Notes under the pieces: model-generated
What the model was told of the DNA's origin: nothing
Database searches by the model: none
The model's input: only the letters and a program-made list of their open reading frames with translations
Source of the DNA: Escherichia phage vB_EcoM-G3F7
Sequence record: MZ234035.1
Strand: one strand, 5' to 3'
Length of the DNA stretch: 64,000 bases
Made by a program: the position numbers and the translations under genes
Part shown: positions 23,454 to 64,000 of the stretch, one piece after another
How the letters are laid out: every line of letters begins with the position of its first letter
Numbering within the stretch: position 1 is the first letter of the stretch

Positions 23454-23533
23454 TGAGTAATTTCCACAACGAACATGTGATGCAGTTCTATCGTAATAAT
23501 TTTAAAACTAAAGGCGTCTTCGGACGCCAGTGA
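23453..23533 (+). CDS. stp: Stp peptide (26 aa), activator of the host PrrC anticodon nuclease system
   Basis: Hand-translated [26 protein letters not shown], identical to T4 Stp as I recall it; TAATG overlap with ndd stop; contains GGCGTC-TTCG-GACGCC hairpin. Confidence 0.8.
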
Positions 23534-23540
23534 GGAAAAT

Positions 23541-23699
23541 ATAAATATTGCAAAATTATTAGGAGTTATTTCATTTATTTGTTGGATAGTAGCATGTGTT
23601 TTAACTATCTGTATTGATGTCAGCAGTGTGTTTTCGCAAGCTTTAGCTCAGGGTATGTGTGCATATTTAACATTTGTGTTGTTATCTACTAATGATTAA
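23541..23699 (+). CDS. ac: ac-like small membrane protein ORF without an in-frame AUG at its 5' end
   Basis: 52-codon hydrophobic frame INIAKLLGVISFICWIVACVLTICIDVSS...LSTND after GAGGA; possible AUA/AUU initiation or an inactivated gene; position between stp and 52 as T4 ac. Confidence 0.3.
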   Translation: MNIAKLLGVISFICWIVACVLTICIDVSSVFSQALAQGMCAYLTFVLLSTND

Positions 23700-23832
23700 G
23701 AAAATCTTGGGCTATTCATTAGCCCTTGCTATTTTATTGATAGCATTATATTACGGAATAATGTTCGGATTAATTCAAGTCGTGCTTTTCATTTCTGATG
23801 TTATTATGGCACTACATTCACTAGTATGGTAA
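23692..23832 (+). CDS. Small membrane protein (46 aa)
   Basis: Hand-translated MIKKILGYSLALAILLIALYYGIMFGLIQVVLFISDVIMALHSLVW; ends 4 nt before gene 52. Confidence 0.4.
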   Translation: MIKKILGYSLALAILLIALYYGIMFGLIQVVLFISDVIMALHSLVW

Positions 23833-23836
23833 ATTT

Positions 23837-57580: not shown

Positions 57581-57719
57581 ATAATATGAATTGGGTGTCG
57601 GAATAATAAGTTAACCGAACAATTCTATGTGGTAGTCTACAACTGAGAGATCTGTCGAAAGAAGATGAAATTCAGAAGAACGTGACTACCGAGTTTTAAT
57701 CTCTAACGAGAATTTTTAA

Positions 57720-57968
57720 ATGATTAAACAATTACAACACGCTCTTGAACTGCAACGAAACGCATGGAATAATGGTCACGAAAACTATGGCGCATCTATT
57801 GATGTTGAAGCCGAAGCTCTTGAAATCCTGCGTTATTTCAAACATCTGAATCCTGCTCAAACTGCATTAGCTGCTGAGCTTCAGGAAAAAGATGAACTTA
57901 AATATGCTAAGCCTTTGGCTTCTGCTGCACGAAAAGCAGTTCGTCACTTTGTGGTAACACTGAAGTAA
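57720..57968 (+). CDS. rIII: rIII lysis-inhibition accessory protein
   Basis: 82 aa MIKQLQHALELQRNAWNNGHENYGASIDVEAEALEILRYFKHLNPAQTAL...; matches T4 rIII as recalled. Confidence 0.85.
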   Translation: MIKQLQHALELQRNAWNNGHENYGASIDVEAEALEILRYFKHLNPAQTALAAELQEKDELKYAKPLASAARKAVRHFVVTLK

Positions 57969-58368
57969 TTTACTGGAGATTCACTGCCTTAGTGTGAGCT
58001 AAAATCGAGGAGCCGTCGAACTGTCTGATTAATGATTTGCGAATCATTATAGTTTTAAGACCCCGGCAGTTTTACGGTGTACCTCTTGAATGTTATTCTT
58101 ATAGCGGCAAGTGCATGCTACCCCGAGGTGATGGCCAATCGGGAGTACGCCTCAAGGCCTATATATATCCATCAGTATATATCTTATCCTCGAGAAATCG
58201 AACCCGGAACCTTTAAGCTAACGGTGTGCAACAGATAAGAGCTATAAGGTATGATGACGGGTTTATGGTTATCCTGGTCGTTAAATATCCAAAAACCTAT
58301 GTTCCCCTTGAGGGCTTGCGCAGGCAATGCCAATAAGTCCTGCATTTTCATTTAAAAGAGAATTTATA
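57969..58368. other. ORF-free, G+C-enriched intergenic island; candidate structured RNA or decayed element
   Basis: No ORF of 60 aa or more on either strand; hand count ~45% G+C over 58051-58330 against AT-rich flanks; stable hairpin TAATGATT-TGCG-AATCATTA at 58030-58049. Confidence 0.4.
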
Positions 58369-58545
58369 ATGGCAAAACAAGCTAAAGCAAAGAAAGCAGT
58401 TGAAAAGAAAGTTGGTGATTCTAAACGCGCTGGCTACAAGCGTGGGTCGAACTCTCGTATCAATCAAACTGTTGAGAAGATCATGCGCCGAGCACGTGCG
58501 GTTCTTCGAGATGATGCTTCTCGTTTTGGTAAGCAGAAAGCATAA
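58369..58545 (+). CDS. Small highly basic protein (58 aa)
   Basis: Track ORF 58327..58545 extends into the island; internal ATG 58369 gives MAKQAKAKKAVEKKVGDSKRAGYKRGSNSRINQTVEKIMRRARAVLRDDASRFGKQKA. Confidence 0.45.
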   Translation: MAKQAKAKKAVEKKVGDSKRAGYKRGSNSRINQTVEKIMRRARAVLRDDASRFGKQKA

Positions 58546-58549
58546 GTTG

Positions 58550-58574
58550 AGGACTCCTTCGGGAGTCCTTTTTT
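58550..58574 (+). terminator. Rho-independent terminator (second copy of the soc terminator hairpin)
   Basis: AGGACTCC-TTCG-GGAGTCCT followed by TTTTT. Confidence 0.6.
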
Positions 58575-58598
58575 ATTTTCCAAAGATTGCATAAAGTT

Positions 58599-58631
58599 GT
58601 TTACAGTATGGTTCCTTTGTGATAGTATTAT
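58599..58631 (+). promoter_or_regulatory. T4-type early promoter
   Basis: GTTTAC 58599-58604, spacer, TGATAGTATTAT -10 region. Confidence 0.45.
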
Positions 58632-63350: not shown

Positions 63351-63366
63351 AGGCCTTCGGGCCTTT
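63349..63366 (+). terminator. Stem-loop terminator (second copy of AAAGGCC-TTCG-GGCCTTT)
   Basis: Same hairpin as at 15577-15594. Confidence 0.5.
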
Positions 63367-63371
63367 AATTT

Positions 63372-63379
63372 TATAAATA
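63372..63379 (+). promoter_or_regulatory. T4 late promoter TATAAATA upstream of alt
   Basis: Exact TATAAATA ~25 nt before the alt ATG. Confidence 0.5.
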
Positions 63380-63402
63380 GAATAAACACTAGAGAGGCTA
63401 TG

Positions 63403-64000
63403 ATGGAACTTATTACAGAATTATTTGACGAAGATACTACTCTTCCGATTACAAACTTAAATCCAAAGAAGAAAATACCGCAAATTTTTTCAGTTCATGT
63501 TGATGATGCAATTGAACAACCAGGCTTTCGTTTATGTACCTATACATCTGGAGGTGATACTAATCGCGATTTAAAAATGGGCGATAAAATGATGCATATT
63601 GTTCCTTTTACATTAACCGCTAAAGGTTCAATTGCTAAATTAAAAGGTCTTGGTCCAAGCCCAATTAATTATATCAATTCAGTTTTTACTGTTGCAATGC
63701 AAACAATGCGTCAGTATAAAATTGATGCTTGTATGCTTCGTATTCTTAAGTCTAAAACCGCTGGTCAAGCTCGACAAATTCAAGTTATTGCTGATAGACT
63801 TATCCGTAGTCGTTCAGGTGGCAGATACGTCCTTCTTAAGGAACTCTGGGATTATGATAAAAAGTATGCATATATTCTTATACATCGCAAAAATGTATCA
63901 CTAGAAGACATTCCAGGAGTTCCGGAAATTAGTACCGAGCTCTTTACTAAAGTTGAATCGAAGGTCGGTGATGTTTATATCAATAAAGATACCGGAGCTC
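63403..64000 (+). CDS. alt: Alt ADP-ribosyltransferase (head-packaged), 3'-truncated by window edge
   Basis: Open frame from ATG 63403 to window end; MELITELFDEDTTLPITNLNPKKKIPQIFSVHVDD... matches T4 Alt N-terminus as I recall it; position after ligase. Confidence 0.7.
   Translation, partial: MELITELFDEDTTLPITNLNPKKKIPQIFSVHVDDAIEQPGFRLCTYTSGGDTNRDLKMGDKMMHIVPFTLTAKGSIAKLKGLGPSPINYINSVFTVAMQTMRQYKIDACMLRILKSKTAGQARQIQVIADRLIRSRSGGRYVLLKELWDYDKKYAYILIHRKNVSLEDIPGVPEISTELFTKVESKVGDVYINKDTGA

Follow-up and report, generated by a model that had tools for sequence, protein, structure and literature searches.

A multi-helix junction, conserved junction nucleotides and a lock between two loops are typical of the lysine, purine and cobalamin aptamers. 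The packaging RNA (pRNA) of phage phi29 is a phage-encoded structured RNA of ~120-170 nucleotides (nt) with a covarying loop pair, the contact being intermolecular and ring-building, and T4-type phages package their DNA without RNA. Among T4 and its relatives, the closest described systems are the stable RNAs rnaC and rnaD (species 1 and 2), small T-even RNAs which come from a longer transcript and have no promoter of their own; the structured leaders which control translation, namely the gene 32 pseudoknot, the gene 43 and regA operators and the ribosome-binding-site hairpins of e, soc and 49; and the PeSL cassettes, short non-coding modules of ~50 bp made of an early promoter and a terminator stem-loop, which are shuffled, gained and lost by recombination in conserved flanks (PMC4122927). 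Here, a 64,000-nt stretch of Escherichia phage vB_EcoM-G3F7 (MZ234035.1), referred to below as the window, was analysed, and the 400-nt untranslated spacer between its genes rIII and 30.9 (57969-58368) was found to contain a structured RNA of ~150 nt on the + strand (58097-58249), termed the core. Sequence comparison indicates that the core is a member of a previously undescribed structured RNA family, present in T-even-type phages of Enterobacterales only.

The core shares with the three aptamer classes a size in the ~100-170 nt range, a closing helix (P1), a multi-way junction, a covarying kissing loop, highly conserved junction and loop nucleotides and a position in a leader. Unlike these aptamers, it has no match to a covariance model and no conserved platform beside P1, and it is optional in near-identical phages. 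A covarying loop-loop pairing such as that of pRNA is found in the core, although covariation alone is blind to the distinction between intra- and intermolecular contacts; unlike pRNA, the core lies in an early/middle accessory region away from the packaging genes, and the two show no similarity in sequence or model. The rnaC and rnaD RNAs differ from the core in lying within the tRNA cluster and in being tRNA-like with a GGUUCGAAUCC T-arm, and no resemblance or kinship was seen by eye; both are present in T4, from which the core is absent. As a short non-coding module gained and lost between genomes the core is comparable to the PeSL cassettes, but it carries neither of their two signals and is a complex folded RNA; rIII and 30.9 are not mentioned in PMC4122927. 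The structured leaders of T4 are similar to two smaller modules of the spacer (X and M3b, described below). Unlike the T4 operators, which are single hairpins or pseudoknots bound by the protein that they encode, the core greatly exceeds them in size and shows no co-variation with gp30.9 or RIII.

A 2.2-kb search with the 4227 models of Rfam 15, including riboswitches, ribozymes, small RNAs and the GOLLD and ROOL RNAs, detected none inside 57969-58368 at E<=10, a 181-nt search with the core alone returned nothing over the core, and no family reached gathering level in the whole window. ARAGORN identified no tRNA or tmRNA gene in the window, and a tRNA-like reading of the core was discarded, since the linker lengths of its four-way junction differ and a T-loop is lacking. 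No similarity to the core was found in E. coli genomes, plasmids or 185,579 GTDB species genomes (one per species), and a host or plasmid origin was therefore rejected. Exact-pattern scans, two on viral contigs and one on metagenomes, returned only T4-like contigs and the chance matches L020 and L098, and antisense targets of the conserved core loops were not found inside the window. No RNA is annotated at the core in the records inspected, including FN868251, a 1.9-kb GenBank entry for the locus in phage LZ9; one record labels part of helix P3 as a terminator. Searches of the full-text literature by locus, phage group or sequence string, to whose coverage most subscription papers did not belong, yielded no description of the core.

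Fold and covariation of the core

An alignment (A3) of 20 distinct core copies with 10-nt flanks, taken from at least 10 genera, was folded comparatively, giving a four-way junction, a three-way sub-junction and a kissing loop. The four-way junction is formed by the closing helix P1 (58097-58105/58241-58249), P2 (58106-58108/58157-58159), P4 (58162-58168/58175-58181) and P5 (58182-58188/58234-58240); most members have no unpaired linkers here, and the window has a 2-nt UA insertion. P2 is joined to P3 (58117-58126/58139-58150) by a conserved internal loop, AAGUGCAU/CUCAAG, and the resulting arm contacts hairpin P4 across the junction via a 6-bp loop-loop pairing, in which UGAUGG of L3 (58129-58134) pairs with CCAUCA of L4 (58169-58174), the latter being the whole P4 loop. 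P5 leads to the three-way junction with P6 (58190-58193/58198-58201), capped by GAAA in the window and by GAAA, GUAA or UAAA (GNRA-type) across the family, and P7 (58202-58206/58222-58227), which has a conserved 15-nt loop, GA(A/C)CC...GCUAA, and is closed by J7/5 (GCAACA). The unpaired J2/3 stretch AAGUGCAU (58109-58116) reads AAG.GCAU in every member of alignments A3 and A5. The most conserved stretch of the family, GCUAA(C/U)GGUG(U/A)GCAACAGAU, which spans the L7 loop, the 3' strand of P7 and J7/5 (58207-58233), is (nearly) invariant in 22 distinct sequences and served as the search pattern. Kink-turn, 11-nt receptor and loop-E readings of the internal loop gave no convincing match by eye.

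Standard pairs are formed in 98.8% of the 939 cells of the alignment (20 sequences, kissing loop included). Changes on both sides were observed for 23 of the 47 pairs, compared with 9.2±1.8 in shuffled alignments (none of 500 reached the observed value) and 2-7 in slid controls, and the covariation score was 0.279, compared with 0.111 for shuffles and 0.03-0.06 for slid controls. All six pairs of the kissing loop are formed in all 20 sequences, three of them covary (C-G/U-A, 13:7; G-C/A-U/U-A, 16:2:2; G-C/A-U, 18:2), and there are no one-sided changes; the L3/L4 sequences become CGAUGG/CCAUCG in Klebsiella phages, CUAUGG/CCAUAG in Muldoon and CAAUGA/UCAUUG in Cronus, EcS1 and fHe-Yen9-01. The local alternative to the kissing loop given by RNAalifold (33-35 with 40-42) has weaker support, with two unpaired cells at 35-40. 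An all-against-all column scan for further tertiary pairs was dominated by single-sequence noise, only the nested helices and the kissing loop emerging from it. The long-range pairing of TCTTATC (58182-58188) with GATAAGA (58234-58240) that an earlier note on this DNA had picked out is exact; it is helix P5, which is compensated in other phages. Folding of the single sequence gave weak signals (both strands folded), with z = -1.9 for the core and -1.1 for the whole spacer, and because neither is significant alone, the support for the fold comes from the comparative data.

A covariance model (R1) built from the core alignment found a single copy in the window (177.7 bits) and recognised the divergent copies of EcS1 (128 bits) and Yersinia phage fHe-Yen9-01 (109 bits). 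These two sequences compensate helices that had been invariant until then, P2 changing from GGC/GCC to GGU/ACC and P7 from CCCGG/CGG to CCCAG/UGG. The wobble cells of the alignment comprise 33 G-U and no A-C on the + strand, from which it follows that the folded molecule is the + strand transcript. The first of the three origins which the earlier note had offered for this island, a structured non-coding RNA, is thus strongly supported by + strand covariation, with 23 of 47 pairs compensated.

Nucleotide identity to the window is 77-98% for the core, 71-85% for rIII and 65-88% for 30.9. The core outranks both genes in eight of nine comparisons, the exception being AmPhEK29, in which 30.9 is 88.1% and the core 86.3% identical, and ~45 unpaired core nucleotides do not vary between genera that share just 63-77% identity in their RIII proteins. 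Core homologues carry indels which would break a reading frame: the window has +2 nt, EcS1 has +1, +2 and +7 nt, and single-base indels occur in COW86c, Cronus and L026. A conserved ORF (open reading frame) within the core is therefore ruled out.

Distribution and cassette behaviour

When 50,697 phage records were searched by BLAST with the spacer, 993 matches in a mosaic pattern resulted: T4-type phages match as two pieces, and Klebsiella, Enterobacter, Edwardsiella and Salmonella phages match only at spacer positions 137-273, with 92-94% identity. The spacer of Escherichia phage vB_EcoM-CHD94UKE2 is 100% identical to that of the window. The core (~140 nt) is present in 407 phage records, in one copy each and always in the rIII-30.9 interval, these records comprising a minority of Tequatrovirus together with Dhakavirus, the VR5/VR26 group, Moonvirus, Karamvirus, Kanagawavirus, Muldoonvirus, Roskildevirus, Klebsiella T4-like phages including Marfavirus, EcS1 and Yersinia phage fHe-Yen9-01. 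It was also found in 20 of 48 rIII-anchored viral contigs. The record PP212877.1, named 'Aeromonas phage PS49', has a core with 99.4% identity to the Enterobacter phage copies, so that its host may be mislabelled or its host range unusual.

The T4/RB3 spacer, when aligned, lacks exactly positions 58096-58252 of the window. When spacers were collected with an rIII protein profile, a single site between CUUGAAUGU and (U/G)AUGAUGACG proved to have three alleles, being either empty (as in T4) or occupied by a ~45-nt hairpin or by the core. This flank type occurs in ~720 records, with the full core-bearing spacer in 179 and the small-hairpin allele in ~225; the counts are rough, as BLAST joins pieces. 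The empty allele of the T4 type contains the short repeats GAATGT/GAATGA, with the junction GAATGT/GAATGATG. Loci L050-L054 are without the core and have RIII and gp30.9 98-100% identical to those of the window. Moreover, the order of the modules differs between genera, the core lying 5' of module X in the window, Merlin, PG7 and Cronus and 3' of it in Klebsiella phages, PEi20 and Muldoon. By this comparison of loci, the core is an optional single-copy cassette. The second origin suggested by the earlier note, a remnant of an acquired or degraded element, stands in so far as the central 155 nt are an exchangeable cassette among close relatives; the strong constraint on them shows that they are no degraded remnant.

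The ~45-nt hairpin (...CGUCAGAAAAAGGUUAUCUGUCUAAGUCG...) replaces the core at the same site in L050, L052, L055-L058, L061, L063 and L065, and it resembles module X. CC31-like and EcS1-like spacers have it embedded in a longer hairpin just 5' of the 30.9 ribosome-binding site.

Surrounding modules, genes and transcription signals

The remainder of the spacer is made up of smaller modules, all on the + strand. Module A (57980-57998) is a small hairpin, UUCAC-UGCCUUAGU-GUGAG, whose stem changes by eye from CAC/GUG to CGC/GCG and UGC/GCA between phage groups. Module B (58007-58085) is a long interrupted hairpin for which RNAalifold gave 25 pairs from 10 spacers, five of them compensated despite the close kinship of the sequences; it occurs only in Tequatrovirus, Dhakavirus and VR-type spacers, including that of T4. 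It is tipped by the UNCG-type hairpin that had been pointed out in the earlier note, which lies exactly at 58030-58049 (TAATGATT-TGCG-AATCATTA), is compensated in a relative (L065) with a UACG loop, and is separate from the core. A reading of this hairpin as an intrinsic terminator was rejected, since the scan was negative and the stem has one G-C pair and is followed by a short U stretch only.

Module X (58250-58297) comprises a conserved UAUGAUG motif, a hairpin at 58256-58279 (conserved loop GGUUAUC), GUUAAAUAU and a possible pseudoknot partner at 58289-58295. It is present in almost all spacers, including that of T4 (T4/RB3 locus L001, ~1620-1680), is duplicated as 'module C' in many phages, and was not found described in the literature. 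Its stem covaries by eye (GAC/GUC, GGC/GCC, GUU/AAC, GUC/GAC, GUGG/CCAC), and its loop and A-rich tail may form an H-type pseudoknot, as judged by eye from UUGUGAG/CUCACAA in Merlin and UUAGUAG/CUACUAA in L090; a naive per-sequence helix test of this pseudoknot was not significant. Competition of the module X loop (UUAUC) with P5 was also considered and was dropped, because it is not conserved in fHe-Yen9-01. Module M3a (58304-58319) is a small hairpin seen by eye, CCC-UUGA-GGG followed by CUUGCG, which is conserved in all genera with stem changes to CCUC/GAGG and GCC/GGC and directly follows the rIII stop codon in some phages. Module M3b (58320-58368), also delineated by eye, is a hairpin, GCAGG...CCUGC, followed by a U-rich stretch, the stem being replaced by GGGAGC...GCUCCC in other genera. 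Its UUUUC (58345-58349) is complementary to the Shine-Dalgarno sequence of 30.9, GAGAA (58358-58362), and the U/C-rich stretch and the Shine-Dalgarno sequence change together between genera by eye (UUUCUCC...GGAAGA; CCUC...GAGG in Cronus), which suggests that the 58345-58362 pairing sequesters the ribosome-binding site in the manner known for T4 e, soc and 49. The third possibility raised in the earlier note, a leader regulating the basic small protein downstream, is accordingly plausible for the 3' modules, with their hairpin and a U-rich stretch able to pair with the 30.9 ribosome-binding site.

The genes at this locus follow the order of T4-like phage genomes, cd, 31.2, 31.1, 31, rIII, spacer, 30.9 and 30.8, all on the + strand, as judged from the ORFs and the annotation of syntenic records (RB3, JS98, PEi20, Merlin and others). 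rIII (57720-57968) is an 82-residue ORF annotated as rIII at the syntenic position in RB3, JS98, PEi20 and others, and 30.9 (58369-58545), annotated in RB3, JS98 and PEi20, encodes a basic protein of 58 residues which belongs to phrog_1427 and has no Pfam match. The island had been described as free of ORFs of 60 codons or more, and this holds on either strand for 57969-58326, where the longest ORFs have 59 (TTG start, 58037-58216), 55 and 53 residues; the 358-nt gap ranks second-longest in the window. A 72-residue ORF (58327-58545) covers the last 42 nt of the spacer and merely represents an in-frame upstream ATG of 30.9. The G+C enrichment likewise proved correct, with 45.4% over 58051-58330 and 42.2% over 57969-58368 compared with 35.7% for the whole window. 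The AT-rich flanks reported with it are limited to more distant sequence, because the adjoining genes rIII (40.6%) and 30.9 (44.6%) also exceed the average of the window. GenBank record MZ234031 annotates the 72-residue form of 30.9 and two 'hypothetical proteins' of 59 and 36 residues on the structured RNA, and the spacer of Klebsiella phage TNG87 is annotated with five small coding sequences; such small coding sequences and the long form of 30.9, noted at 58327-58545 of the window and at locus L004 (1569-2077), are probably annotation artefacts. The longest stretch of the window without a 60-codon ORF, 23454-23836, lies between ndd and gene 52 and contains a small hydrophobic ORF of 52 residues (23674-23832), which we take to be the T4 ac gene; the third-longest, 63351-63649, lies near the end of the window.

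No sigma-70-like promoter and no intrinsic terminator were detected in a scan of the spacer, and late or MotA-type promoter readings of GUUAAAUAU and GGGCUUGCG were rejected as off consensus and variable between genera. The rIII-30.9 unit ends at a strong intrinsic terminator (58549-58580, + strand) consisting of a 9-bp G+C-rich stem and a T-run, which also accounts for a weak Rfam match to Atu_C8 (31 bits, below threshold), and the promoter scan placed an early-type promoter after 30.9 (58600-58628). Terminator and promoter together (58549-58628) constitute a typical PeSL-like unit. The sequence GTTAACCGAACAATTCTATGTGGTAGTCTAC at 57606-57640, 5' of rIII, resembles the T4 early-promoter consensus GTTTAC-N14-gtggTAttaT and was negative in a simple sigma-70 scan. 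The core starts 3-10 nt past the rIII stop codon in several genera (Merlin, Moon, PG7, Cronus and L090), leaving no room for a promoter, and it is therefore made within the rIII-30.9 transcript. Early, middle and late promoters drive rIII in T4 (PMC9409239), and the core RNA is accordingly expected during most of infection.

Possible roles of the core

The core is tentatively regarded, at a probability of about 45%, as an accessory RNA whose invariant loops and junctions would target a partner encoded outside this locus, in the host or the phage. This reading is favoured because phages with identical neighbours and leader modules exist without the core, and because the position of the core among the modules is not fixed. 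Within the rIII-to-30.9 mRNA, whose untranslated spacer is probably transcribed through most of infection, the core would offer these invariant elements to one specific partner, possibly a protein of the host or the phage, a different RNA or a small ligand, and it would act neither by base-pairing nor by coding. Its structure would protect the RNA from nucleases, and it might be trimmed out at the A/U-rich linkers flanking P1. Several points weigh against such a role. The folding energy of the single core sequence is unexceptional (z = -1.9), and a discrete core RNA species is putative. The phylogeny of the family is narrow, so that low divergence or recent exchange, rather than function, may account for some of the 'invariant' positions. 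The strict same-strand place 5' of 30.9 fits a cis-acting element equally well and is also consistent with simple vertical descent within a syntenic genome. Finally, no partner, ligand or co-varying gene of the core was identified.

The main rival reading, possible though doubtful, is that the core is instead a cis-regulatory sensor, a riboswitch aptamer or protein operator which tunes translation, termination or stability of 30.9 (or rIII) through the leader modules. The core invariably forms part of the untranslated leader of 30.9, shares the strand of that gene and has no promoter of its own, and the place is also the 3' untranslated region of rIII; the conserved fold of the core is supported by covariation, as for a riboswitch aptamer, and its architecture matches the design of the lysine, purine and cobalamin aptamers. 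At its 3' end the leader has a hairpin and a U-rich stretch which could pair with the ribosome-binding site and which co-change with it between genera by eye, and gp30.9 is small and very basic, a kind of protein which, we infer, often regulates itself through its leader. However, no conserved expression platform adjoins P1, the next sequence being module X, M3a or another module depending on the genus, and neither a conserved alternative pairing with P1 or P5 nor an adjoining terminator was found. The core is moreover absent from phages whose rIII, 30.9 and leader modules are 98-100% identical, and it is therefore dispensable for regulation and does not co-evolve with gp30.9. The accessory reading is also open to a more specific, unlikely form, in which the cassette would be a new functional RNA class: a decoy, sponge or inhibitor of a host factor or immune sensor conserved in Enterobacterales, or a homo-oligomer held by intermolecular loops like pRNA or ROOL/GOLLD. 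If this were true, T-even phages would be using the interval between rIII and 30.9 as a docking site for exchangeable RNA 'accessory genes'.

An untranslated RNA of 250-420 nt within an operon is otherwise open to Rho and RNase E, and hairpins make up the whole spacer (A, B, X, M3a and M3b), as would be expected if the folded modules only shielded the untranslated stretch from Rho and RNases or stabilised the 3' end of rIII. Such a passive role is improbable for the core, since a shield requires stems only, yet ~45 unpaired core nucleotides are invariant and a precise 6-bp tertiary contact is kept by compensatory change; in addition, T4 manages without the core. A self-cleaving or processing ribozyme of a new class, separating the rIII and 30.9 messages, would agree with the location between two cistrons and with the compact junction, loop-loop contact and invariant unpaired nucleotides, which resemble the hammerhead, hairpin and twister-sister designs, but is considered very improbable, as no Rfam ribozyme family matched at E<=10, no evidence of a cleavage site was found and the core is optional in close relatives. 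Small protein-coding genes are annotated in GenBank (three hypothetical coding sequences over the spacer in MZ234031), ORFs of 59, 53 and 55 residues exist, and 'hypothetical protein' features underlie the match in many records; however, these ORFs vary in frame and length between records, the homologues carry frame-breaking indels and the substitutions occur as compensating pairs. A signal at the DNA level (promoter, origin or recombination site) or a decaying mobile-element remnant would be in keeping with presence or absence at one fixed site, with the short repeats of the empty T4 allele and with the shuffling of small non-coding cassettes in T4-like genomes, which is known (PMC4122927). 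Against this, the compensatory changes and the strand-specific G-U pairs point to selection on a folded + strand transcript, no promoter-like site was seen in the spacer scan, and the core is not decaying, being better conserved than the genes on either side in most comparisons. The coding and DNA-level readings are thus effectively refuted.

The structured RNA family represented by the core is genuine and strongly supported, appears to be undescribed, and adds a well-supported candidate to the small group of large orphan structured RNAs. The T-even phages are the most closely studied bacterial viruses, yet this complex fold is unannotated or mis-annotated in ~400 genomes, and genome annotators are advised against calling ORFs over it. 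The natural alleles (core, small hairpin or nothing) in near-identical phages provide a ready-made experiment on the function of the core, and the rIII-30.9 locus indicates that T4-like genomes shuffle RNA modules besides ORFs and promoter cassettes.

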